The position numbers and the translations under genes were made by a program. 64,000 nt of DNA from Alteromonadaceae bacterium M269 (GTDB lineage: Bacteria; Pseudomonadota; Gammaproteobacteria; Enterobacterales; Alteromonadaceae): contig SMNZ01000004.1 of the NCBI GenBank assembly GCA_004353515.1, positions 328,360 to 392,359 of the forward strand, written 5' to 3'. Below are positions 29,404 through 63,841 of this stretch, in pieces. Positions within the stretch are counted from its first letter, which is position 1. The number at the start of each line of letters is the position of its first letter. The notes beneath the pieces were generated by a model. That model was given only the letters and a program-made list of their open reading frames with translations, was not told where the DNA came from and made no database searches.

Positions 29404-30186
29404 ATGTCTACTCCATACCAAGCCCCCGAATCTGTATTACAAGAACATGGGATGACACAATGCAGTGCTTGTCATCAAGATGTACATGTTACAGCATCGA
29501 TGTGTCCTCATTGCGGAGTTTCCCGCAGAAGTTCACGTTATAAAAATAAAACGATTGCAGCCCTCTTCGCGTTTTTTCTAGGAGGTTTCGGCGCACATCG
29601 ATTTTACTTGGGGCAATGGTGGGGAATATTCTATCTCCTGCTGTTTTGGACAAGTATCCCTGCAATTATTGCACTCGTAGAGTTTATTTATTTCTTGGTT
29701 AAGGATCAGTATAAGTGGGATGCTCATTACAACGAGAGCATGCCTGCAGGCCCTGGCGATAAAAGCGGCGGTGCGTTAACTGTCATACTCGCTATTGTTG
29801 GTGTTATTGTATTCGTTGCTTTCATCGGAATTTTAGCAGCAATCGCACTACCTGCTTATCAACAATACACCCTAAAAGCACGAGTCGCAGGCGCTTACAA
29901 TGAAACAGTTGTTTTGCAAACAGAGATGGAAAACTACTTCCAACAAAACGGTATTTTTCCGCAATCTAATGCAGACTTACGCCAAAAATCACCGCTGTTC
30001 TTAAGTGACACCCATACCGCAAAGGTCGTTCCAGGTGGAATAGAAATCGACTTTGGACCAAGCGTTCAACAACTATCCTCCAAAACGCTAGTTATTTCCC
30101 CTCTTGTAGTCGGGGAAAACATTATTTGGAAGTGCACAGATGGGACATTGGAGAAAACACTCTACCCACCAGCTTGTTCGGACTAA
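29404..30186 (+). CDS. Membrane protein: N-terminal zinc ribbon + TM2 domain + third TM that continues as a type IV pilin-like domain with C-terminal disulfide loop
   Basis: CSACHQ…CPHCG; the TM2 signature FFLGGFGAHRFYLGQWWGIFYLL; then IGILAAIALPAYQQYTLKARV, identical in 9 consecutive residues to pilin alpha1 (IGILAAIALP); C-terminal C…C (WKCTDG…PPACSD). No G-1/E5 prepilin processing site. Confidence 0.6.
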   Translation: MSTPYQAPESVLQEHGMTQCSACHQDVHVTASMCPHCGVSRRSSRYKNKTIAALFAFFLGGFGAHRFYLGQWWGIFYLLLFWTSIPAIIALVEFIYFLVKDQYKWDAHYNESMPAGPGDKSGGALTVILAIVGVIVFVAFIGILAAIALPAYQQYTLKARVAGAYNETVVLQTEMENYFQQNGIFPQSNADLRQKSPLFLSDTHTAKVVPGGIEIDFGPSVQQLSSKTLVISPLVVGENIIWKCTDGTLEKTLYPPACSD

Positions 30187-33162: not shown

Positions 33163-36100
33163 ATGATGTCTACAGATCAAGAACAGGTTGATCAGGCGGT
33201 CACTGAAGGTGGTGCGTATGAGGTCATTCGTGCGCGTCTGGAAGAACAAGCCTCTCAACTAAAAGCAAAAGTCGATAGCATCAATACAGCACGTATTGAA
33301 GAGTTTGGACAAGCCAAGCTAGAAGTTATCGGCCGTGTGCGTGTGCGCACCGAAAATAACTGCATTGCACGCGATATAGTTCCCGTAGGCGATGCTATCC
33401 TTTTTGGATACAACGTCTTTATAGGCTTGAAGAAAGAAACGCAAATTAGCGACGTTTTCAGCCTTTATGCACTCACTCAAAAAGAATCAGGGTACGAACT
33501 CACACCTAAAGATTTAGCAGGAACTTTCCTCGATCAGCCTGAATTCAAAAAAGAATTCCATGAGCTATACGTTTACTACAAAGAAGCACGATTAATCCAA
33601 TTAAAAGTGCAGGGGCAGCTCCTCTTTGCCGTGTTCCAAATAGGCCGTAAGCTGGAAGATACCCGTGTATTTCAGTGGCAACTAAGTAAAGATGGCACGG
33701 CCAAATACATCGACAACCGAGGCGAACGTGCAATCAAGTCAGCACCTTCGCACGACTTTGAATGGCAATCGGTAGGTCGCGAACAGCATGTTTCGGGCAG
33801 CCATCCACATATCAACATCCTGGATGAAGTCTTTGTCGAAACTATTGGTGGCGACCTCACCATTAAGGTTGAGAACAACACCGAAGACGGTTTGGGCATC
33901 TACAACGAACCTGTTGAAGATAAGACTCAGAGTTTAGCTGATGCTGATATTCGATATGCCAAAGTTGGCACCCTAATTCTGCTGAAAATTCAGCCTTATC
34001 GCGAAAAAGACTATCGATTTTTAGTCTTCAACACGCGTACACAGCAAGTCGATAGAATTGATGCGATTGGTTTAGCCTGCGTAACACTACCTGAAGACCA
34101 TGGCATTATTTTCCCTGGCGGTTACTATTTACAAAATGGTGAGACCAAGTCTTTCCCAGACCAAATAGAAGGGTTGAAGTTTAAACGCAGTATTCGCTCC
34201 CCTAATGGTGAAGACGTTCTCTACATATTCTATGAACCTGAATCTGGTTTAAGTGGATTGTTCTCCTACAACCTTATTCGTAAAGAGCTACAAAACCCGA
34301 TTTATGCACACGGTTACAGTGTGTTTGAAGATGGCACAACCGTTGTTTTCAATGCAGAAGATGAAGCGACACGTGTGCATCCGATGCAAGTTTGGGAAAC
34401 GCCTTATTTCAGTACAGAGCATGCCGCTAAACAACCGACTAGTGACAGTTTTTACAGCCGTATCGGCAACAAAGAGTTAGTCCGTGGTATATCCGATTTA
34501 ACAGCCATTAATCGTGCTGTCCGCAACCCAAATCCAAGCCGAGTGCTTTACGAAGATTTAATCCAAACCTGTCGAAGTATGTTTGACAGATACCACTGGA
34601 TTGACGAACCTGAAGTTGATGGACTCGGTGAAGTGGTTAAACAAATCACAGCAACATCTGAGTTGGTTATCGACGAATTCGAGAAAGTTGAACAAATCAG
34701 GCAACAAGCTGACAAAGCACTTGCGGGAGCAGAAGAGAAACAACAAGAAGCGATTTCGTCCATACGTATCAGCGACTGGCAGTCTCCTGAGCAATATGTT
34801 GATTGCCTAACAAGGTTACGTCAGCAGCGCGGCCACTTAATTACACTAAAAGATCAACGTTACATCAATCGTGAGCGCATTGCTGAGCTTGATGAAGAGG
34901 TTACTCAGCGCTTTGATGAAGTCAGTTCAGCAACAGTTTCTTTCCTATCTAGTGACAAATCACTACAGCCCTACACAGACAAGATTACCACGTTAGAGAA
35001 TGCCATAGCGCAAGTCGAACTCGTGGTTGATATCAATCCAATAAATGAAGAACTCGAAACCTTATCAGTCGGTTTGGATTTATTGACTGAAATACTCAAT
35101 GGCTTGAAGGTAGAAGACGCCACAGTAAGAACAAAAATACTGGACGATATTTCTGAGATCTACGCCAAACTCAATCAGGTCAAAGCGCAAGGCAGACAGC
35201 GCAAGAAACAACTCGGCTCGGGCGAAGCCAATGCAGAATTTGCGGCACAATTCAGACTCTTCTCACAGAGCATCAATAGCGCATTGGCAATGGCTGACAC
35301 ACCAGATAAAGCTGATGAGCAATTATCGCGTTTAACCATTCAATTGGAAGAACTCGAGTCTAAATTTAGCGAGTATGATCAGTTTCTTAGCGACATTATG
35401 GATAAACGCGAAGAACTGCATAATGCTTTTGAAAGTCGCAAACAAAGCTTGTTAGAAGAGCAACAAAGACGCGCACAAAATATGTTTAGTGCTGCCGAAC
35501 GCATCATTAAAGGCATCACTCGTCGCGCTGCGACATTTAGCGATACTGACGAGCTCAATACCTACTTTGCCTCTGACCCAATGGTACTCAAAGTCTCTGA
35601 TCTCGTAGAGCAGTTGAGGGGCATTAACGACCAGATACGTGCTGACGACCTAGAAAGCCAGCTTAAAGCCGCCAAAGAGCAAGGCATCCGTAGCTTAAGA
35701 GATAAACAAGATATCTTCGAAGATGGCGGAAACGTTATCAAACTGGGTAAGCACAAATTCAGCGTTAACCAGCAGGCTCTTGATTTAACTCTATTACCCC
35801 GTGACGACGGCCTTTATCGCCATCTCGTAGGTACAGACTACTTTGAACGCATTGAAGATAATGAACTAAACGAGCTTAAGCCCTACTGGCAGCAAAATCT
35901 GATTTCTGAAAATGATGATGTTTGCCGGGCGGAATACCTCACATCTGTCATCATTAGAGATGCTGAACAGCAGCAAAATAACCTCTCGATAAGCAAACTT
36001 GCTGAGCTCCTGGACAACGAAACTGAGCTTAGTAAGTTGGTCAGGAAAACCATGTCTGACCGCTATCAGGAAGGTTACGAAAAAGGCATTCACGATGCCG

Positions 36101-38244
36101 ATACAGTTAAGCTATTAAAAGCACTGTTACCTATCCACCAAAAAGCTGACTTACTACGTTTTGCGCCTAAAGCTCGGGCTGTTGCATTGCTCTTTTGGTG
36201 CTTCGAAGCTAGAGACAAACAGCAGAAGCAGCTTTGGCAAAGCCATGCTATAAGCGCTCAGTTGCTCTCTAAAACATTCCACAGTCGCAGTGGTTTTACC
36301 GAGCTTAATGCTAACTTGTTCAACGCTATTGCGAGATTTTGCCAGCGATTTGATCTGCCGTTTGAAGAAAACGACATAGACGTCGGTGCTGAATACCTGA
36401 GCTTAGAATTAGCTAAAGAAAAGCTGGCTTTTAGCACCAGCCAACCCGCGAGAAATCTGCGCGATACTATGTCTAAGCAACTGAAAGAGCTTGGACATGA
36501 CAGAGAATTTGATGCTGCAATGTCACGCTTTGCTGAATTGATAGAACAGACGCCAACGGAATCAGAACAGGCTGCTGGTCTTAAAGAGCAATGGAGCCTA
36601 GCCAATGCTTGGTTGAACGCGTTACTCGATTCCTCTGAGGCAAGCCAAGAGTTCGAACATTATCTACCCGAAGCAGCTGCGCTAACACTATGCCAAGGTA
36701 AACTCCAAACCGAGGACAGTAGTGTCAATCTGCAAGCGGTAGTAGATGGATTACTGAGTGATCATAATCGTGTTAAAGATGGTCAACTGAACATTGCTTT
36801 AGACGAGTTTAACCAACGTTTAAGCCACTACCATTTCCATCATGTCACGCAATTCAAGCGTTACCATGACTTACGACATGAACAGATGGTGACGAGTAAA
36901 CGTGAACTTCAACTCGACGCTTATACTGCTAAGCCACTTAGCTCTTTCGTTCGTAATCGCCTCATTGACGAAGTCTACCTGCCTATTATTGGAGACAACC
37001 TCGCGAAACAGATGGGTACTGTTGGTGATGATAAACGTACCGATTTGATGGGTTTGCTATTACTTATTTCGCCACCTGGCTATGGTAAAACGACCTTGAT
37101 GGAGTATGTCGCTGATAGGCTTGGCTTAGTGTTTATGAAAATAAACTGCCCCTCGCTAGGGCATGATGTTACCTCTGTTGATCCATCCAATGCACCCAAT
37201 GCAACAGCTAAACAAGAACTTGAGAAACTCAATTTAGGTCTTGAAATGGGTAACAACGTTATGTTGTATCTGGACGATATTCAGCATACGCATCCTGAAT
37301 TCCTACAAAAGTTCATTTCACTGTGTGACGGCACAAGACGTATTGAAGGTGTCTGGAAAGGCGAAAGTAAAACCTACGACATGCGCGGTAAGAAATTCTG
37401 CATGGTCATGTCAGGAAACCCCTATACCGAATCAGGCGATGTCTTCAAAGTACCTGATATGTTGGCTAACCGTGCTGACATCTACAACCTTGGTGATGTA
37501 CTAGGTGGCAAAGAAGAACAGTTCGCCTTGAGCTATATCGAAAACTGTCTAACCTCCAATCCAGTGCTAGCGCCTTTAGCACTACGTGATATGAAGGACG
37601 TCTACAAGTTGCTAGATATGGCACAAGGTGAAAACGTTGCAACAACCGACTTAAGCCATCAGTACAGCGGTGCTGAAATCAATGAGATCACCAGCGTTCT
37701 CGGGCATCTGAGAGAAATCCAAAATGTCATCTTAAAGGTGAACTTGCAGTACATACAATCTGCGGCAACAGCTGAGGATTACCGCCAAGAGCCTCCGTTC
37801 AAACTGCAAGGCAGTTATCGAAACATGAATAAAATGGCAGAGAAGGTATCAGCTGTCATGAATCATGAAGAACTGATGCAGTTGATTGGCGATCACTACA
37901 CTGGTGAGGCACAAACACTGACGTCTGGTGCCGAAGAAAACTTGCTTAAATTAGCTATCTTACGCGGCACTATCACCGAGGAAGAGCAAGGACGTTGGGA
38001 ACACATTTGTAGTACCTACGCCAGCAAGCAAACTTTGAATGTTGAAGGCGATCCAAGCCATCAAGCTGTTCAACAGTTGAGTCATATTGCTGCCTCTTTG
38101 GAAGCCATCAAAATTGACGCTCAGCAGTCAGATACTGGTGATTTGATTAGACCGATAAATCGCGTCGCAGCTGCGATGCATTTACTCAGTAAAACTTGGG
38201 CAGGCGATCAAAAAGAATCATCAGAAGAACAAACCGATAAATAA
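33163..38244 (+). CDS. Giant (1693 aa) protein: N-terminal ~450-aa globular domain, ~550-aa coiled-coil region, C-terminal MoxR/AAA_5-like P-loop ATPase module; function unknown
   Basis: AGGAGA RBS. Walker A LISPPGYGKTTLMEY (~37060-37105), Walker B MLYLDDIQ (~37262-37285), sensor-1/arginine region VMSGNPYTESGDVFKVPDMLANRADIY resembling MoxR (ATQNP…LP.A.LDRF). No ABC signature LSGGQ. Confidence 0.8.
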   Translation: MMSTDQEQVDQAVTEGGAYEVIRARLEEQASQLKAKVDSINTARIEEFGQAKLEVIGRVRVRTENNCIARDIVPVGDAILFGYNVFIGLKKETQISDVFSLYALTQKESGYELTPKDLAGTFLDQPEFKKEFHELYVYYKEARLIQLKVQGQLLFAVFQIGRKLEDTRVFQWQLSKDGTAKYIDNRGERAIKSAPSHDFEWQSVGREQHVSGSHPHINILDEVFVETIGGDLTIKVENNTEDGLGIYNEPVEDKTQSLADADIRYAKVGTLILLKIQPYREKDYRFLVFNTRTQQVDRIDAIGLACVTLPEDHGIIFPGGYYLQNGETKSFPDQIEGLKFKRSIRSPNGEDVLYIFYEPESGLSGLFSYNLIRKELQNPIYAHGYSVFEDGTTVVFNAEDEATRVHPMQVWETPYFSTEHAAKQPTSDSFYSRIGNKELVRGISDLTAINRAVRNPNPSRVLYEDLIQTCRSMFDRYHWIDEPEVDGLGEVVKQITATSELVIDEFEKVEQIRQQADKALAGAEEKQQEAISSIRISDWQSPEQYVDCLTRLRQQRGHLITLKDQRYINRERIAELDEEVTQRFDEVSSATVSFLSSDKSLQPYTDKITTLENAIAQVELVVDINPINEELETLSVGLDLLTEILNGLKVEDATVRTKILDDISEIYAKLNQVKAQGRQRKKQLGSGEANAEFAAQFRLFSQSINSALAMADTPDKADEQLSRLTIQLEELESKFSEYDQFLSDIMDKREELHNAFESRKQSLLEEQQRRAQNMFSAAERIIKGITRRAATFSDTDELNTYFASDPMVLKVSDLVEQLRGINDQIRADDLESQLKAAKEQGIRSLRDKQDIFEDGGNVIKLGKHKFSVNQQALDLTLLPRDDGLYRHLVGTDYFERIEDNELNELKPYWQQNLISENDDVCRAEYLTSVIIRDAEQQQNNLSISKLAELLDNETELSKLVRKTMSDRYQEGYEKGIHDADTVKLLKALLPIHQKADLLRFAPKARAVALLFWCFEARDKQQKQLWQSHAISAQLLSKTFHSRSGFTELNANLFNAIARFCQRFDLPFEENDIDVGAEYLSLELAKEKLAFSTSQPARNLRDTMSKQLKELGHDREFDAAMSRFAELIEQTPTESEQAAGLKEQWSLANAWLNALLDSSEASQEFEHYLPEAAALTLCQGKLQTEDSSVNLQAVVDGLLSDHNRVKDGQLNIALDEFNQRLSHYHFHHVTQFKRYHDLRHEQMVTSKRELQLDAYTAKPLSSFVRNRLIDEVYLPIIGDNLAKQMGTVGDDKRTDLMGLLLLISPPGYGKTTLMEYVADRLGLVFMKINCPSLGHDVTSVDPSNAPNATAKQELEKLNLGLEMGNNVMLYLDDIQHTHPEFLQKFISLCDGTRRIEGVWKGESKTYDMRGKKFCMVMSGNPYTESGDVFKVPDMLANRADIYNLGDVLGGKEEQFALSYIENCLTSNPVLAPLALRDMKDVYKLLDMAQGENVATTDLSHQYSGAEINEITSVLGHLREIQNVILKVNLQYIQSAATAEDYRQEPPFKLQGSYRNMNKMAEKVSAVMNHEELMQLIGDHYTGEAQTLTSGAEENLLKLAILRGTITEEEQGRWEHICSTYASKQTLNVEGDPSHQAVQQLSHIAASLEAIKIDAQQSDTGDLIRPINRVAAAMHLLSKTWAGDQKESSEEQTDK

Positions 38245-38255
38245 AGGGTATCACT

Positions 38256-38804
38256 ATGAAATGTACAAGTTGTAAAACAGGTGACTTAGAAAGAACTTTT
38301 ATTGATGGACTATTTGAAGCCAAAACCTGCACTCATTGCGGCGGAAATTGGATCTTGGTAGAGCATTATGTTGCTTGGAAAGAAAGGAATCCGAATCATG
38401 AGTTTGATGTTGACCAAGACTTTACAATTTCAGAAACCTCTACAGCTATGCTTTGCCCAGTATCGGGTATTATTATGCGTAAACTAAAAATAGGGGATGA
38501 TAGCTCTCATCGTGTTGATTACAGTGCAGCTGTTGGAGGTGTTTGGTTAGATAGCGGTGAGTGGGAATTGCTAAAGAAGAAAGGTTTAGCGGGTTCGCTT
38601 AACAACATACTCACTGCAGTTTGGCAACGTAATATTCAATTGAATACCACACACAAAAACCTCTCAGAAGTTTATAAAAATAAGTTTGGCGACGAAAACT
38701 ATCAAAAGGTCAAAGCATTCAGGGAATGGCTGATTGAACAACCCAACAAAACTGATCTAAAAGCTTACATCAATGCTGAAGATCCTTACTCAGCTATCAA
38801 GTAG
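38256..38804 (+). CDS. zf-TFIIB-type zinc-ribbon domain protein (tandem ribbons), 11 nt downstream of the giant ATPase gene
   Basis: CTSCKTG…CTHCGGNWI and CPVSG…AAVGGVWLDSGEWELL match the PF13453-like pattern C-x2-C…C-x2-G-G-x-W-x-D-x-G-E. Confidence 0.6.
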   Translation: MKCTSCKTGDLERTFIDGLFEAKTCTHCGGNWILVEHYVAWKERNPNHEFDVDQDFTISETSTAMLCPVSGIIMRKLKIGDDSSHRVDYSAAVGGVWLDSGEWELLKKKGLAGSLNNILTAVWQRNIQLNTTHKNLSEVYKNKFGDENYQKVKAFREWLIEQPNKTDLKAYINAEDPYSAIK

Positions 38805-38932: not shown

Positions 38933-41900
38933 TCAGTACAACCAGACTCGCATTAGCGAGAATAAGCGTTCAATTTCTATCGGCTTAGAAATGTAATCGT
39001 TTGCCCCTGCTTCAATACACTTTTCCCTGTCATTTGTCATCGCTTTGGCAGTAAGCGCAATAATCGGCACATTCTTATATTGGTTGTTGTCGTCACGAAT
39101 TCGACGTATCGCTTCATATCCATCCATTTTAGGCATCATGATATCCATTAACACAATATCGATATCTGTGTTTTCCACCAGTTGTTCTAGTGCCTCTTCG
39201 CCGTTTTTCGCAACAACAACTTTCATGTTTTTACCTTCTAGTCCTGCAGAAAGTGCATAAATGTTGCGCATATCGTCATCGACCAACAACACCTTTTTAT
39301 GATTCAATATAGCTTCGACATCATGCATCTTTTGCAGAATTTGGCGCTGTTTATCAGGCAAGTTCGCTTCCATTCGATGCAAAAATAGCGCAACTTCATC
39401 CAACAGTTTTTCGGCCCCCTTCTCGCTTTTCTGAATCACGGCATGGGCATACTGGTTTAACTCAACCAGCTCATCTTTCTGAAGATCCTTAGCGGTATAG
39501 ACAATGATAGGGAGGTTATCCAACTTTTCATTTACGTGGACCAATCTCAGGAGTTTAAGGCCATCAGTATCTGGCAAGTTCAGATCTAAAACCATGCAAT
39601 CAATATCTTCACTCTCAAGATGTTTTTCAGCCTCAAAAGCAGTCTCAGCAGTGATAACTTCCATATCATGATTACCTAATAAGTCACGTATGTAATCAGA
39701 CTGAACCTCATCATCTTCCACTAACAACAACTTCTTAATAGGTTTTTCAGCTAACTGAGAGAAGCGTGTTAGTACCGAAACAATTTTTTCTTGTGAAACC
39801 GGTTTCTGTAGGAAACCAATAATCCCCTTGTCTTTTACTTCTTCGATACTACCCGTACCGCTCATCACATGAACCGGAATATGTCTTGTTGAGGAGCTAT
39901 CTTTCAAACGGGAAATAGCCGTTTGCCCACTGATGCCTGATAAGGTGAGATCGACAATAATGCCGATGGGACGAAACTCCTTGGCTAACATATAGCCTTC
40001 ACCACCATCATCTGAAATCAATATATTAAATCCATGTTCGCGCACTAAGCTTGCCACTATCATGGCGAAATTAGGGTCGTCTTCTAATAACAAAATAGTC
40101 TGCTTATCAGAAGACAAGCTGTCCCTATCATCAGGCACCACGGTTCGTGCTAAACGGTTCGACTTCTCAGATCTCGATAACGAAGTCTTAATTCGATGAG
40201 TAGGCACCAGCTTTTCGCATTTCTCAGGTAGGTATAGTGTGAATACGCTACCCTCTCCTTCAACACTCTCAAGATGAATTTCCCCGTTAAGCAAATCTGC
40301 GAGCTGCCTACATATAGACAACCCCAGCCCAGTGCCACCGTATTCTCGCTGAATTCTGGCATCTATCTGCTGAAAAGCATCAAAAATGATGTTTTGCTTT
40401 TCCTTAGGAATACCAATTCCCGTATCTCTCACCGCAAAGGCAATGACTCCATTTTCCCTTAACTCGTTACGACTAAAGTGCGTATTTTTTCCAATACGAC
40501 TGATGTGAAGAGACACACTGCCTTGTTTAATAAATTTAAACGCATTCGAGAGCAAGTTGCGCAATATCTGCTTCAATCGTTGCTCATCAGTGGTCATGGT
40601 TTCTGGCAAGGTACTATCTAATGTTATCGAGAAACCGATTCCTTTTTCTTCAGCAACGGATGCAAAGGACTTCTCCATTTCTGTTGAAATTTGAGAGAAC
40701 GAAAGAGGTTCTAGCGTAACCGTCATCTGCCCCGCTTCTACCTTCGACAGATCGAGAATATCGTTGATCAGCTTCATCAAATCATTACCAGAATGGTAAA
40801 TGATAGAAGCTGATTTCACTTGGTTATCATTAAGGTTCCCTTCTTTATTATCCAATAACATTCGAGAGAGTATGAGTAAGCTATTTAACGGAGTTCTGAG
40901 CTCATGGCTCATATTGGCAAGAAACTCAGACTTATAAGCGCTTGTCTCTTCAAGCTCTACTTGAGTTTCTTCAAGTTGCCTGTTTCGTTCTTCAACTTCT
41001 ACACTCTGACGCGCTAACTCCTCGTTGCTAACTCTGAGTTCTTCTTCGCTCTGTTTTAGCTGTTCTGTTTGATTTTGCACTTGGCTCAACAGTTCTTCAG
41101 TACGCAAAATAGATACAATGCCGTTAACAATGATGGCGCAGCTATGTAGCGTTTGCCTAAGTAAGGCGTGATGTTGCGAAGTAAAAGGAGCTAATGATGC
41201 CACCTCAATCACAGCCAAAGTTCGACCTTCAAACACAATAGGCATAATACTTACCTGAGTTGGTTTGGCGTTCCCTAGCCCTGAACCAATATTATGAATA
41301 TAGTCGCTAGGTATTTGATTTAAATAAATCGGCTGCTTGCTTTCAGCAGCCTGGCCAACTAAACCTTCACCTAATTGGGTATCTCGCTGCAATTCTTTAG
41401 CATCTGAATATCCATAAGTTCCCTGACACCTGAGAACACTCCTTTCACCCTGCTTTCTGTAAACGAAATAAAAAAGTCCTAACTGGGCATCCAGCAATGG
41501 TAAAAGACCATTTAATAACTCACGAGCAAAGTCCTCAACATCCGTTTTCGCCTGCAACTTCACTGTTAGCTGTGTAAAAGCCCTTTGAACCCAGTCTTGT
41601 TCTTCAAGCCGTTGCTTTTCGTTCTCTAGCGCTTCACGGATATCTCTCTCTGTCTTTTGTGCTTGTTTGAGCACACTCAAATCTTCAATAGCTCCAGTAA
41701 AAATTCTACGGCTCTCAAGGTTCACTTCACCGACGTGCAGCATAAGCGGAAACTCTTCACCATTTTTGCGCAAACCCGTTAGCTCCCGCCCTGCACCGAA
41801 GATACTTTTTTTTCTCGTTTCGCTATACTTTTTTAGATATTCGTCATGGTGATTTTTGTACTTTTCAGGCATCAATACTTTGATATTCTTACCCTTGACC

Positions 41901-42388
41901 TCCTCCATGTCGTAACCGAACACCCTTTCTGCGGCTTCGTTAAAGGTTTCAATGGTTCCCTCTTCAGTGACAGACACAATGACAGTATTAACAGTATCTA
42001 AAACACTTTGCAGGCGTGTTTCATTCACTGACAACCTATTCTCAGTTTTTTTCCGAAAATAGATGGCTATTGCCACGCTCCATAACGCCAGAATCGAAAG
42101 TCCGCGATTGAATTGAACAATCCAAGGTTCAGACTTTATCTCGGTGATCAGAAAATACCCTATTATGGTTAAAACAGTGGATATGACGGCAAAAACAAAA
42201 GAGGTATAAGGCCAAGGATATCTGAGTGCACTTAAAATAAATATGACATAAATAATGCCACCAGCAACGCCTAAAGGTGTGAAGAAGTCGAACACAAGGC
42301 CAACGATAAACATGATAAGAGTGGCGGCAGATGCTCTTAAGTTTGTTGGAGTAAGCCATAAAGAAAAAGAACCTTCTATACTCATCAC
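38933..42388 (-). CDS. Hybrid sensor histidine kinase: membrane sensor-PAS-GAF-HisKA-HATPase followed by three receiver domains
   Basis: 1151 aa. H-box SHELRTPLNSLLI. G-boxes (DTGIGIP; GGTGLGLSI). Three REC modules with conserved D/K (LLLEDD…DLTL; LLLVEDD…LDLNLPDTDG; VLLVDDD…MDIMMPKMDG). Confidence 0.85.
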   Translation of the reverse strand: MMSIEGSFSLWLTPTNLRASAATLIMFIVGLVFDFFTPLGVAGGIIYVIFILSALRYPWPYTSFVFAVISTVLTIIGYFLITEIKSEPWIVQFNRGLSILALWSVAIAIYFRKKTENRLSVNETRLQSVLDTVNTVIVSVTEEGTIETFNEAAERVFGYDMEEVKGKNIKVLMPEKYKNHHDEYLKKYSETRKKSIFGAGRELTGLRKNGEEFPLMLHVGEVNLESRRIFTGAIEDLSVLKQAQKTERDIREALENEKQRLEEQDWVQRAFTQLTVKLQAKTDVEDFARELLNGLLPLLDAQLGLFYFVYRKQGERSVLRCQGTYGYSDAKELQRDTQLGEGLVGQAAESKQPIYLNQIPSDYIHNIGSGLGNAKPTQVSIMPIVFEGRTLAVIEVASLAPFTSQHHALLRQTLHSCAIIVNGIVSILRTEELLSQVQNQTEQLKQSEEELRVSNEELARQSVEVEERNRQLEETQVELEETSAYKSEFLANMSHELRTPLNSLLILSRMLLDNKEGNLNDNQVKSASIIYHSGNDLMKLINDILDLSKVEAGQMTVTLEPLSFSQISTEMEKSFASVAEEKGIGFSITLDSTLPETMTTDEQRLKQILRNLLSNAFKFIKQGSVSLHISRIGKNTHFSRNELRENGVIAFAVRDTGIGIPKEKQNIIFDAFQQIDARIQREYGGTGLGLSICRQLADLLNGEIHLESVEGEGSVFTLYLPEKCEKLVPTHRIKTSLSRSEKSNRLARTVVPDDRDSLSSDKQTILLLEDDPNFAMIVASLVREHGFNILISDDGGEGYMLAKEFRPIGIIVDLTLSGISGQTAISRLKDSSSTRHIPVHVMSGTGSIEEVKDKGIIGFLQKPVSQEKIVSVLTRFSQLAEKPIKKLLLVEDDEVQSDYIRDLLGNHDMEVITAETAFEAEKHLESEDIDCMVLDLNLPDTDGLKLLRLVHVNEKLDNLPIIVYTAKDLQKDELVELNQYAHAVIQKSEKGAEKLLDEVALFLHRMEANLPDKQRQILQKMHDVEAILNHKKVLLVDDDMRNIYALSAGLEGKNMKVVVAKNGEEALEQLVENTDIDIVLMDIMMPKMDGYEAIRRIRDDNNQYKNVPIIALTAKAMTNDREKCIEAGANDYISKPIEIERLFSLMRVWLY

Positions 42389-44827: not shown

Positions 44828-45385
44828 CTACCAAGTCAGATCATCAGGAATTTCATAATCTGCATACCAATCATCTTCTTCTGATGTTGCCTTATTTTCT
44901 TCCTGAGTTTCTGGCGGTGCAATATAAACAACAATCTCTTGATCACGTTCACTAATCTTATCTGCGACAGGCATAGGGACAATTTCATAGCCATCATCAG
45001 CTCTAACAATAGCTAGCTTGCCTTGGCTGATATGTTTTTGCGTCGCTTCATCAACAAAAAGGCGTTTAATCTTTGTACCGTCAGTGAAGTTGCAAATCAC
45101 CTCACCATTATTCTTAGGCTGCTTATTTACTTCAATAAGCTGCTTAATTTGCGCTTTAATGGCTTTCTCGTCCGCCACTTGCTTCGCTTTAGCGTTTAAC
45201 TCGCGGTCTTTAGCTTTCTTAGCCTCAAGAGATTCCTGAGCAGCTTTAGCGCTTTCATCTACTTCAACAATTTTATGTTTCTTATTTATTTTGTTCTTTT
45301 TACGCTTTTCATTCTTAATTTTGACGGCTTTCTTTTTATCCGTCAGCCCAGCTTTCAGCAGCTGATCTTGCAGAGACAATGCCAT
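44828..45385 (-). CDS. Lys-rich DUF2058-family protein (YaiL-like)
   Basis: 185 aa, highly charged KKKAVKIKNEKRKKNKINKK tract, acidic C-terminus. Family called from memory. Confidence 0.5.
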   Translation of the reverse strand: MALSLQDQLLKAGLTDKKKAVKIKNEKRKKNKINKKHKIVEVDESAKAAQESLEAKKAKDRELNAKAKQVADEKAIKAQIKQLIEVNKQPKNNGEVICNFTDGTKIKRLFVDEATQKHISQGKLAIVRADDGYEIVPMPVADKISERDQEIVVYIAPPETQEENKATSEEDDWYADYEIPDDLTW

Positions 45386-45516
45386 AGGAGACCTTCATAT
45401 GATGAATAGGAATGATGCTATTTTAATACTAATTTAAAGGACTTGAAATGGTGGATAACGGAATAGCAAACACACAACCCAAACAACTAAGGAAAGCTTG
45501 CATTCAACGAAAGATT

Positions 45517-45547
45517 CTCAGTAACTGCTAGCTACACAGTTACTGAG
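45517..45547 (-). terminator. Perfect 11-bp stem hairpin (CTCAGTAACTG / CAGTTACTGAG, 9-nt loop) 9 nt after the peptide-gene stop
   Basis: Read in the sequence. The downstream transcript sequence AAUCUUUCGUUG is moderately U-rich. Confidence 0.4.
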
Positions 45548-45555
45548 AATTAAGT

Positions 45556-45738
45556 TTAGTTAATAACCGGAACACCAGGAAATGGGAAAGGTGTTGGCTG
45601 TTGTGGAGCAGGCTCGCACACAAAGTCACGACCCACAAATCGACAGACTTGCTCTGCCTGAATGCCCATACCACCAGCAACATGATTAATTTCCATATCT
45701 GAGAGTTCAGTTAAGTTTCTTTTGATACTATTTTCCAT
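45556..45738 (-). CDS. Double-glycine leader peptide precursor (bacteriocin/microcin- or signal-peptide-like); predicted 37-aa core with 2 Cys and a Pro-rich tail
   Basis: Leader MENSIKRNLTELSDMEINHVAGG fits the GG-leader consensus exactly: hydrophobics at -4 (V), -7 (I), -12 (L), -15 (L), Glu at -8, Ser at -11. Core MGIQAEQVCRFVGRDFVCEPAPQQPTPFPFPGVPVIN. AAGGA RBS 6 nt upstream of the ATG. Confidence 0.6.
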   Translation of the reverse strand: MENSIKRNLTELSDMEINHVAGGMGIQAEQVCRFVGRDFVCEPAPQQPTPFPFPGVPVIN

Positions 45739-45768
45739 TACTTATCCTTATCAATTTATTGAACTTTT

Positions 45769-45801
45769 ACTGATTAACTACCTTTAAAATACTTAATCAG
45801 T
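45769..45801. promoter_or_regulatory. Inverted repeat ACTGATTAA-N15-TTAATCAGT, 31-63 bp upstream of the peptide-gene ATG
   Basis: Read in the sequence. Located in the 155-bp gap between the kinase gene stop and the peptide gene. Confidence 0.3.
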
Positions 45802-45892
45802 GAATAAGATAATATGGAGTTTTGAGGTTACGAATAACTGTACAGAAGTTCAGTTCTATAAGGGTAGTTCTGATAATGAGGTATGGAGCTAA

Positions 45893-47374
45893 TTAAGCCG
45901 CTTTTGCCAAACCAAAAGTAAAACGCGTGCCTTTACCTAACTCACTCTCAACACGGATATCTGAGTCCAGCAATGTTAGGAGTTTCTTGCTGATAGGTAA
46001 TCCCAACCCGGCATGAGTACCATCTTCAACATTGGTATTCTCGGCTTGGAATCTCGGATCAAATATTTTCGGAATATCGAGTTCACTAATACCTATGCCG
46101 TTATCAATAACATCAAAGCGCACACGACCAGACTCTTCGTATACACGGATCTCAATTTTACCGCCTTTGTTAGTATGGCGAATGGCGTTATCGATAATAT
46201 TAGAAAGAACACGCTCAAGCTTACCCATGTCGGTATAAACCTGATAATTAAACTGTGAAGGGTTAATCACAATCTCTAAAGATCTTTCTTGCGCTTGCTC
46301 CTGGAACTTAGCAACGACGTCATAGATAAGTTCAGCTACAGGGAAAGCCTCTTTCTCAAGATAATACTGGCCAGTTTCCAAATAAGTATATTCGAACATC
46401 TGATTGATCAATTGCTGCAAGTTTTGCGCGCTGCGTCGACAAACACTGACATACCTTGCTCGCTGTTCATCATTCAAGCTCGCACTCGAGGTTTGTAGCA
46501 TTTCCATATACCCCTGGAGCTTGGCCAAAGGTGTACGTAAATCATGTGCTAGATTTGCCAACATCTCTCGACGCATAGAATCAAGTTGCTGCAGTTCTTC
46601 GAACTGTGAATGAATATGGTCAAGGGTGTTGTTAAAGGCAGTTCCTAACTTATGAACTTCATTGCTACTCTGAGCTTCCCAACTCATTTTACCTTTTTGT
46701 ACTGCATCAGGTGTAAAGTCAGCTGATGTCACCGCTTGCATGGCTTTACTCAGTGACCGCAAAGGTGCCGTAAAGTAGCGGAATAGCGCCAATAAAAGGC
46801 CTAATAATAACATCAAGCTAATGGCAACGAACAAAGCCCACCTTTGCATCGACTTATCATCATTGAGCATGCTGACTACAGAGTCGTATTGCTTACCACC
46901 GATAATGACATACAAATAACCTTGCATGCCTTGCTCAGAGGCTAATGAAGCTGCTGAGAAAACCTTCCCGGTATCACTATGCAATGGATCATCGCCGCGA
47001 ATTGCCGAGCTTTTATCGTTACTGATAAAACCTTGAATAGGTGTTAGGTCAACTTTATCACGCTCAAGTGGTGCACTATTTTCAACACGATGCGTCACTT
47101 GCCCCGTTGTATCCAACAGATAAAACTCAAAGCCAGGCATAAGCCGGCTTAAATCACTCAGTATGGTGTTGACTCTTTGAGGTTGCTCGTTAGCACGATT
47201 TAACTCAGGGTAGTTTTTAACAAGCTCTTGCGCTAAATCGGCATGCAAAAGCTGTTGGGCATGAAGCTGCGTATTCATTTGTAGATGACTGCTCCACCAT
47301 AGGAATAGCCCAATCACCAGCATAAAAACGCCGACCACAGAAATGGCTAAACGCTGGTAGAAACACAACTTCAT
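45893..47374 (-). CDS. Sensor histidine kinase (EnvZ/PhoQ-like: TM-periplasmic domain-TM-HAMP-HisKA-HATPase)
   Basis: H-box LAHDLRTPLAKLQGY. N/G boxes (IIDNAIRHT; GLGLPISKKLL). Two TM segments flank a ~150-aa periplasmic domain. Confidence 0.85.
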   Translation of the reverse strand: MKLCFYQRLAISVVGVFMLVIGLFLWWSSHLQMNTQLHAQQLLHADLAQELVKNYPELNRANEQPQRVNTILSDLSRLMPGFEFYLLDTTGQVTHRVENSAPLERDKVDLTPIQGFISNDKSSAIRGDDPLHSDTGKVFSAASLASEQGMQGYLYVIIGGKQYDSVVSMLNDDKSMQRWALFVAISLMLLLGLLLALFRYFTAPLRSLSKAMQAVTSADFTPDAVQKGKMSWEAQSSNEVHKLGTAFNNTLDHIHSQFEELQQLDSMRREMLANLAHDLRTPLAKLQGYMEMLQTSSASLNDEQRARYVSVCRRSAQNLQQLINQMFEYTYLETGQYYLEKEAFPVAELIYDVVAKFQEQAQERSLEIVINPSQFNYQVYTDMGKLERVLSNIIDNAIRHTNKGGKIEIRVYEESGRVRFDVIDNGIGISELDIPKIFDPRFQAENTNVEDGTHAGLGLPISKKLLTLLDSDIRVESELGKGTRFTFGLAKAA

Positions 47375-48096: not shown

Positions 48097-48369
48097 TAAT
48101 CTTCCTACGTATCTCAAAACATTCAATGCCTATTCTAGGCTACATCTTGAACAAAACTGAATCTCTTTTTTCAACGATCAAGACTGAACGCTTTATCTAT
48201 GGCAACAATAGCGTCCAAATATCGCGTGAATATCACGAAATATTAGACTTTTGCTCCAAATTTATAGCGAAGATAATCTGGTGAACGCTAGATAGACACT
48301 AGGCTTGAGGGAAATGCTGAAAAGAGAACGCAATAAAAAATCATATATAGTGCGACCTCTTAGCATCAA

Positions 48370-62962: not shown

Positions 62963-63841
62963 ATGCAGAGTTTAAATTGGGACGATCTACGCTTCTTCTT
63001 AGCGTTAAGTCGACACAAAACAGCAACACACGCCGGTATCGCTTTAGGGGTGAATCACACCACCATTGCAAGGCGTGCAAGTGCTCTAGAAGAAACTTTA
63101 AAAACACGATTATTTGAGCGTTCACAAGGCGGCTTTGAACTGACACAAGCCGGAGAAAACCTATTAGCTTACGCTGTTGAAATGGAAGAGCTAACACAGT
63201 CCATCGATCGTGACATTTTTGGACGGGATTCCCAGCTAAGCGGGCCGCTAAAGATCACCATAGCGCACGATGTCGCAGAGCGTTTGGTTCTCAAACATAT
63301 CAAAGACTTTCACAACAACTATCCGCATATCAGTCTTGAGTTGCTTACCACAACAGGCTTAGTGAATATGACAACGCGAGAGGCAGATATTGCCTTACGG
63401 TTAACTCCTAAACCGCCTGAACATTTGGTTGGAAAAGAGATCACGCGTTTAAAGCACGGTATTTATACTTCCAGTGAGTATTGGGAAAAACATCAAAACA
63501 ACCCAAGTACTATTCTGTATTTTGATAACACAAGTTCTGATTGGGTGAAGAAGCATTTCCCGGAAGCTGATGTCGCAATGCGCGTCGATGATGTGGGTAC
63601 CATGTGTCATGCCGTGGCTAATCATATGGGCATAGCTCGCCTACCCTGCTATGTGGGCGATACCGACTCACGCCTAAGACGGCTAGACATCGATCTACCA
63701 CGTTCAACCTGGGGCATTTGGATCCTCAATCACATCGATTTACGCAGCACAGCAAGGGTAAGAGCAGCCAGAGAATTCCTAATCGACATTATCGAAAAGC
63801 AGCTACCTTTAATTCATGGCGAGCAATCTATGTACATGTAG
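62963..63841 (+). CDS. LysR-family transcriptional regulator (divergent from the GST/tautomerase/SDR/CMD operon)
   Basis: LysR HTH (LRFFLALSRHKTATHAGIALGVNHTTIARRASALE). The stop codon TAG is supplied by the first bases of a REP element. Confidence 0.85.
   Translation: MQSLNWDDLRFFLALSRHKTATHAGIALGVNHTTIARRASALEETLKTRLFERSQGGFELTQAGENLLAYAVEMEELTQSIDRDIFGRDSQLSGPLKITIAHDVAERLVLKHIKDFHNNYPHISLELLTTTGLVNMTTREADIALRLTPKPPEHLVGKEITRLKHGIYTSSEYWEKHQNNPSTILYFDNTSSDWVKKHFPEADVAMRVDDVGTMCHAVANHMGIARLPCYVGDTDSRLRRLDIDLPRSTWGIWILNHIDLRSTARVRAAREFLIDIIEKQLPLIHGEQSMYM

Follow-up and report, generated by a model that had tools for sequence, protein, structure and literature searches.

What does a 60-codon open reading frame lying just behind a two-component system of Alteromonadaceae bacterium M269 encode, and does its product have anything to do with the two-component system? 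The original prediction, made from a stretch of 64,000 nucleotides that we refer to as the window, was that of an orphan peptide with a double-glycine (GG) leader, which could be either a microcin-like toxin or a secreted signal sensed or controlled by the neighboring sensor and regulator. The explanation that best accounts for our results overall, and to which we assign a probability of about 0.5, is an accessory GG-leader peptide that would be exported by an ABC transporter with a C39-peptidase domain (PCAT) encoded elsewhere in the genome and would serve in competition, its position beside the two-component system being incidental. The features on which the argument is built are listed in Table 1.

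Table 1. Features of the peptide gene and its surroundings (window coordinates)
Feature	Coordinates	Strand	Remarks
Precursor gene, 60 codons and stop codon, MENSIKRNLTELSDMEINHVAGGMGIQAEQVCRFVGRDFVCEPAPQQPTPFPFPGVPVIN	45556..45738	-	GenBank TDF37450.1, hypothetical protein; leader plus core
Leader, residues 1-23, MENSIKRNLTELSDMEINHVAGG	45670..45738	-	Predicted cleavage after G23
Predicted core, 37 residues, MGIQAEQVCRFVGRDFVCEPAPQQPTPFPFPGVPVIN	45559..45669	-	Residues after G23
Shine-Dalgarno sequence AAGGA	45745..45749	-	6 nt before ATG
-10-like hexamer TATTAT	45809..45814	-	Exactly 21 nt downstream of the dyad
20-bp dyad, AACTGAACTTCTGTACAGTT	45836..45855	-	Candidate operator for a dimeric regulator
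Terminator-like hairpin	45514..45550	-	15-bp stem, 7-nt loop, after the stop codon
Histidine kinase gene	45893..47374	-
Direct repeat upstream of the response regulator gene	48207..48237	-	11-bp period

Judging from sequence comparison, the ORF is almost certainly a real gene. It is present on the minus strand as originally described, together with its AAGGA ribosome-binding site, and the latter is kept ahead of the start codon in the homologous loci L001, L006 and L009. The remark that so short an ORF is easily missed does not hold in this case: GenBank already lists an exact counterpart, the hypothetical protein EYS14_14975 of strain M269, and the same exact peptide is also present in the MAG GCA_947502165.1. 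The original prediction staked the gene on the conservation of the ORF, leader included, in related genomes, and conserved it is in three other lineages, at 87%, 61–63% and 43% identity. We consider the ORF to be coding because all indels among the homologues are in frame, pairwise dN/dS among them is low (0.12–0.35), substitutions between the window and L001 are biased toward the third position (5, 2 and 11 at codon positions 1, 2 and 3, respectively), and the frame of the peptide is the sole frame open in all four lineages (window, L001, L006 and L009). The hairpin behind the stop codon has a folding energy of −21.5 kcal/mol (z = −5.5 against shuffled sequences), and equally strong hairpins of unrelated sequence occupy the same place in L006 and L009. 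A chance ORF within an intergenic region would be in keeping with the shortness of the ORF, the lack of a Pfam family and the very few homologues. Yet it would have to explain why the frame is conserved even in a homologue of just 43% identity, dN/dS staying below 0.35, why no other frame is open across the four lineages, and why the ribosome-binding site, the promoter module and the terminator are all conserved. Taken together, the comparative data appear effectively to refute this possibility.

The family to which the peptide belongs is very small. Among about 15 billion proteins it comprises four sequence variants, and all of them come from one genus-level clade of Alteromonadaceae/Pseudoalteromonadaceae. 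No further variant emerged when 5.8 billion clusters were searched by a word index and 1.84 billion representatives exhaustively by phmmer. Besides the window peptide these are P0001 (87% identity), encoded at the syntenic locus L001; P0005/P0127 (61–63%), encoded at L003 and L006–L008; and the 54-residue P0003 (43%), encoded at L009 immediately behind the C-terminal end of the orthologous histidine kinase (HK). In the exhaustive phmmer search, the genuine relatives were P0001 and P0003 only. P0002, a repeat protein of 1047 residues with a phmmer E-value of 2.8e-14, was rejected as an artefact, in which eight near-identical repeats sum up weak matches; a single repeat gives a BLASTP E-value of 9e-7 for a search space of two sequences, which is insignificant database-wide. 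P0004, with three near-identical repeats, was judged spurious too; these repeats look like, and probably are, translated repeat-element (REP) DNA of the kind known from Pseudomonas. Scans of metagenome contigs and viral contigs with the family profile returned nothing, neither the peptide nor its homologues matched any Pfam family, Rfam gave no match in the region 45300–46000, and our search for literature on strain M269 or its locus tags found none. The peptide is best described as a new, narrowly distributed and probably bacteriocin-like member of the broad class of GG-leader peptides, the substrates of PCATs.

Leaders of this class consist of some 15–30 N-terminal residues ending in GG, GA or GS; positions −4, −7, −12 and −15 are hydrophobic, whereas −8 and −11 are typically occupied by E and S, respectively. 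Counting G23 as −1, the window peptide features V−4, I−7, E−8, S−11, L−12 and L−15 in addition to GG at −2/−1, and our recount agreed with the original assignment at every one of these positions. In the four-member family, the invariant leader columns are E11, L12, S13, E16, V20, G22 and G23 (−13/−12/−11, −8, −4 and −2/−1). Column −7 is occupied by I, V or T and column −15 by L, M or I, and the remaining leader positions vary freely. Since the invariant columns coincide with positions of the GG consensus and the others vary, the leader signature itself is selectively conserved. A loose regular expression for GG leaders, applied to 1726 candidate small-ORF starts in the window (ORFs of 25–150 codons), matched a single one, that of the peptide ORF; on account of this uniqueness we regard the leader as more than a chance resemblance. 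The sole signal from the family libraries was NCBIfam NF038167, 'CTB family bacteriocin': residues 1–28 of the peptide align to profile positions 1–27 with E = 0.0028 and 17.8 bits, a score below the curated cut-off of 32 bits that applies to the whole protein. The same leader-only match recurs in three of the four family members, at E of about 0.002. The CTB family consists of cyanobacterial GG-leader bacteriocins, with which the window peptide shares a similar leader; the core lacks similarity and the taxon is different. AlphaFold2 placed a helix at residues 14–23 of the leader, with low confidence. By pattern and by selective conservation, then, the peptide has a double-glycine leader, although the curated profile threshold is not reached.

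The residues flanking the predicted cleavage site, V[AS]GG-M, are invariant across the family, and this stretch could instead belong to the functional peptide. According to such an interpretation, the gene would encode a small intracellular or otherwise non-PCAT protein, for example, a regulatory or stress protein, the N-terminus of which merely resembles a GG leader and in which V[AS]GGMG[IV]Q is part of an uncleaved 60-mer. Invariant residues on both sides of the proposed site, the missing exporter nearby and the below-threshold profile match all fit this interpretation, and a family of four variants is too small for strong statistics. What makes it unlikely in our view is that the invariant residues are spaced as in the GG signature (−13/−12/−11, −8, −4, −2 and −1) and the intervening positions are free, and that the sole detectable similarity, found in three of the four members, is to the leader of GG bacteriocins. 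Moreover, the combination of a Cys pair and a Pro-rich tail is met more typically in extracellular peptides, and the gene is dispensable and fast-evolving. All in all, the sequence features make it rather likely that the product is a PCAT-exported GG peptide.

For the predicted core we computed a monoisotopic mass of 4070.00 Da in the reduced form and of about 4067.98 Da with one disulfide, and a pI of 4.7. The computed values for the other family members are similar, with cores of 3.8–4.1 kDa that are all neutral to acidic. Eleven core columns are invariant: M24, Q27, C32, C41, P43, P45, Q46, P48, G55, P57 and N60. Hence the single Cys pair and the Pro-rich tail that had been pointed out in the one sequence are features of the family, the former as a conserved C-x8-C pair. 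In the AlphaFold2 model, C32 and C41 lie on opposing strands of a β-hairpin (residues 30–35 and 38–43; pLDDT of this block about 71); the model as a whole is poor, with a mean pLDDT of 52.5 that is too low for a fold search, and gives a weak indication of a Cys-bracketed hairpin in the core. A profile search of the PDB produced chance matches only (E-values of at least 1.2).

Many RiPP precursors have GG-type leaders that are cleaved by PCAT-like transporters. The leader might therefore have a second task in guiding modification enzymes whose genes lie elsewhere; the modified part would be the Cys residues or the Pro-rich region, both of which are conserved. This we consider very unlikely, as neither the window nor any homologous locus encodes a modification enzyme, the two Cys residues are accompanied by no Ser/Thr-rich or other typical modification motif, and no RiPP precursor family was matched.

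If the peptide is exported by a PCAT, the transporter would be encoded at some distance. The gene is flanked by the HK gene and by a DUF2058 gene, and the gaps of 154 nt and 170 nt, respectively, contain no membrane ORF. We scanned 36 window ORFs of at least 120 residues against Pfam and NCBIfam and inspected Pfam lists of the region within ±10 kb of the peptide and of the left flank. Neither these ORFs and lists nor the 10 kb that adjoin the window on the left include an ABC transporter, Peptidase_C39, HlyD, TolC, an immunity-like membrane protein or a peptide-modifying enzyme, which bears out the original statement that exporter, immunity and modification genes are absent from the window. 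The idea of an exporter encoded just beyond the left end of the window was dropped, since the 10-kb left flank holds an integrase/resolvase island and no transporter. An orphan GG-leader peptide on which a distant transporter acts in trans is a familiar arrangement.

Two gene arrangements deserve mention in their own right. The island to the left of the window (L018 1–9222) is a cluster of integrase (DUF6538 + Phage_integrase), resolvase, HTH_3, HEPN and ClpX-zinc-finger genes adjoining a peptidase M1 gene, and probably represents an integrated mobile element or a defense island. The other is a gene for a 212-residue DsbA-family protein (PF01323/PF13743) with a CSWC motif and no obvious signal peptide, found at L003 1577–2215 (−), which is the same as L006 9001–9639 (−). 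It sits between the HK gene and the peptide gene, divergent from the latter, in the L003/L006–L008 lineage only; the window, L001 and L004 have no counterpart. Its position beside a peptide with a Cys pair may or may not be meaningful.

Is the peptide functionally linked to the two-component system? Besides two transmembrane segments and a periplasmic-type N-terminal region, the HK comprises HAMP, HisKA and HATPase_c domains, and it matches no specific equivalog; the response regulator (RR) combines Response_reg and Trans_reg_C domains and is thus of the OmpR/PhoB type. The adjacency and common strand noted originally are correct, and the distance needs a small correction: the HK gene ends with its stop codon at 45893, leaving a gap of 154 bp rather than 155 bp. 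The two-component system also occurs without the peptide. Its RR and HK genes are followed after 94–153 nt by the DUF2058 gene in four sister lineages (L004, L010, L011/L012 and L013/L014), whose HKs are 79–85% identical to that of the window and whose retrieved flanks contain no ORF with a GG leader. HK orthologues of 47–50% identity in other Alteromonadaceae reside in a different neighborhood, again with no GG-leader ORF. In a neighbor-joining tree of the HKs, the peptide carriers (window/M269, L001, L006–L008 and L009) are not monophyletic, which implies that the peptide gene was lost or gained several times as the two-component system was retained. The peptide gene is, by these sequence comparisons, dispensable, accessory and fast-evolving. 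Between the window and L001, 8 of the 60 peptide residues differ, five of them in the core, whereas the HKs are 100% identical over residues 1–200 and 98–100% identical elsewhere in the three regions compared. An identical sensor facing a differing peptide is the opposite of receptor–ligand co-variation.

The RR also appears to have a site of its own elsewhere. Upstream of its gene there is a direct repeat, CGTGATATTCA-CGCGATATTTG, joined by a third unit, GACGCTATTGT, which is degenerate. Four lineages, among them the peptide-less L004, have kept these repeats, and the full 20-nt pattern occurs in the window just once, at this very place. They are likely to represent the autoregulatory box of the OmpR-type RR. 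We looked for this CGYGATATT repeat, the putative RR site, at the peptide promoter and did not find it.

These observations bear on the possibility that the core is a pheromone sensed by the periplasmic domain of the HK and/or that the RR drives the peptide promoter. Such an arrangement would be a Gram-negative analogue of three-component quorum sensing of the ComCDE/BlpCHR type, and there are points in its favor. In every known case the peptide gene follows the same HK in the same orientation, at a spacing of 154–163 nt in the window, L001 and L009; a missing immunity gene is what one would expect for a signal; and the rapid divergence of the peptide resembles pherotype variation. Furthermore, read-through transcription is possible in the window, where we detected no terminator separating HK and peptide. 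Nevertheless, adjacency to the HK carries little weight, because all the carriers are close relatives with overall synteny. As in the Gram-positive systems (ComC/ComDE, BlpC/BlpHR and PlnA/PlnBCD), the peptide gene lies beside a histidine kinase and a response regulator. The components differ: an EnvZ-like kinase that has a periplasmic domain and two transmembrane segments takes the place of a multi-pass HPK10; the regulator is OmpR-type rather than LytTR; and the order is RR-HK-peptide with a separate peptide promoter. Neither the HPK10 and LytTR types of the known GG-pheromone circuits nor co-inheritance and co-evolution of peptide and sensor were found here. The suggestion that the adjacent two-component system senses or controls the peptide fares poorly against the intact RR-HK pairs without a peptide in the four sister lineages and in distant Alteromonadaceae, the DsbA-family gene between HK and peptide in L006–L008, the sensor that stayed identical through five core substitutions, and the lack of the putative RR repeats at the peptide promoter. 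A functional link is not supported by these sequence data, the pheromone arrangement is quite improbable, and the position beside the sensor looks incidental.

Instead, the peptide gene is, as its upstream sequence indicates, independently transcribed from a promoter module of its own. The dyad follows the pattern AACTR-N10-YAGTK, with the same spacing in the window, L001, L006 and L009, and in L006 a symmetric G>A / C>T change affects both arms. We counted two occurrences of the pattern in the window, where 0.4 would be expected. At an identical distance from the dyad, three diverged lineages have the hexamers TATTAT, TATCAT and TACTAT. The entire module, consisting of the dyad, exactly 21 nt, TAYNAT and then 70–81 nt to the ATG, is kept in the window, L001, L006 and L009 in the midst of sequence that has diverged. 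An alternative reading of the region as a Sigma-E/ECF-type promoter (GAACTT...) was rejected; its −10 part is not conserved in L006/L009 and the spacing is wrong. Further downstream, in what is presumably the 5′ untranslated part of the peptide mRNA, there is an 8-bp inverted repeat, CTGATTAA-N15-TTAATCAG (window 45770–45800), which is identical in L001, whereas L006 and L009 show no recognizable conservation of it.

With a transcription start about 7 nt past the hexamer, the dyad would be centered at about −43.5. The lux box of V. fischeri is located at −42.5, and the LexA box has the consensus CTGT-N8-ACAG. The dyad resembles the LexA box, matching seven of its eight core bases in the window and L009 and five of the eight in L006, and we treat this resemblance as a lead. 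Another lead is the resemblance of the CTG-N10-CAG core of the dyad to lux-type boxes, exemplified by the V. fischeri sequence ACCTGTAGGATCGTACAGGT (PMC4444344). It is conceivable, if very improbable, that the peptide is a PCAT-exported signal and not a toxin, either sensed by the EnvZ-like kinase or placed under quorum-sensing or SOS control through this dyad. Were that the case, it would represent peptide communication of the Gram-positive style, with strain-specific 'pherotypes', in a marine Gram-negative lineage.

To return to the reading that we prefer, namely an accessory peptide exported in trans, we infer export, cleavage, the disulfide, antibacterial activity and the regulator as parts of the following scheme. 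A PCAT acting with a membrane-fusion protein and TolC, all encoded elsewhere in the genome, would recognize the leader helix through L−15, L−12, S−11, E−8, I−7 and V−4, cleave after G22-G23 and export the core. The exported peptide, slightly acidic and of about 4.07 kDa, would consist of a β-hairpin stapled by a Cys32-Cys41 disulfide and a Pro-rich tail, and would act in interbacterial competition as an unmodified class II bacteriocin or microcin-like peptide. The OmpR-type RR and EnvZ-like HK would be core genes of the clade that flank the insertion point by chance. Expression would probably be governed by a dimeric helix-turn-helix regulator bound to the conserved dyad, immediately ahead of the −35 region. 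We favor a role in competition over a housekeeping one because of the rapid amino-acid divergence and the presence/absence polymorphism among close relatives. That the peptide is actually antibacterial is a tentative proposal, for which the sequence gives somewhat less than even odds. The size of the core and its single Cys pair are comparable to those of known disulfide-containing GG-leader bacteriocins and microcins (PMC12219008), whereas the missing immunity gene and exporter nearby, a mass under the class II microcin range and the acidic or neutral core speak against a bacteriocin-like role.

Class II microcins are among the nearest parallels. Validated members are encoded beside a PCAT and a membrane-fusion protein, together with a small transmembrane immunity protein; their mature mass is usually 5–10 kDa, and MccV and EN43 have one disulfide each (PMC12219008). 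PCATs are widely distributed in Gram-negative bacteria, and GG-leader microcins have been described as ubiquitous in them (PMC12219008). Like MccV, MccL and MccN (PMC12219008), the window peptide comes from a Gram-negative host and a strain-variable gene, and its core is probably unmodified, acidic/neutral and closed by a single disulfide. The differences are that the core has 4.07 kDa instead of the usual 5–10 kDa and the leader 23 residues instead of 15–18, that the gene has neither an adjoining PCAT/MFP pair nor a membrane immunity gene, and that the peptide, whose role is here predicted from its sequence, has no similarity to any known microcin. The leader also conforms to the consensus LS-x2-E[LIV]-x2-[LIV]-x-GG of Gram-positive class II bacteriocins and GG pheromones, and core lengths of 35–37 residues are within the range of that class. 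Unlike most Gram-positive class II bacteriocins, however, all cores of the present family are anionic or neutral.

A further point of comparison is Xanthomonas RaxX (PMC8872720), which is secreted by a PCAT and acts as a signal, not a toxin. RaxX and the window peptide are both small proteobacterial precursors with a GG-type leader and a Pro-rich core. RaxX differs in being tyrosine-sulfated and encoded beside raxB (PCAT), an MFP and a sulfotransferase; the window peptide has no Tyr, no such neighbors and no sequence similarity to RaxX.

Provided that the peptide is indeed exported, it represents a new family, of very narrow distribution, among the GG-leader peptides of Gram-negative bacteria, a class which recent work suggests to be far more common than annotation shows. 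It overturns nothing established. At 37 residues the product is short enough for chemical synthesis, and sister strains with and without the gene provide a natural test of activity.

Several other regions of the window are noteworthy as well. The stretch most divergent from L001 is at 40157–40609, within the gene for a 1151-residue hybrid histidine kinase (38933–42388, minus strand). Here, nucleotide divergence amounts to 17–20% against a mean of 4.6%, L001 being otherwise about 95.4% identical to the window; either a recombination tract or a hypervariable linker could account for this. Positions 33163–38804 encode a DUF3686/DUF7902/AAA protein of 1693 residues followed by a zinc-ribbon protein of 182 residues; this pair is kept in all related loci and matches no NCBIfam family. 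The 260-residue protein encoded at 29404–30186 is an unusual fusion of an N-terminus resembling a double zinc ribbon with a TM2 domain and, at the C-terminus, a type IV pilin domain. Finally, the gene at the right end of the window (62963–63841) is found on a separate 3-kb contig (L017) in the MAG GCA_947502165.1.
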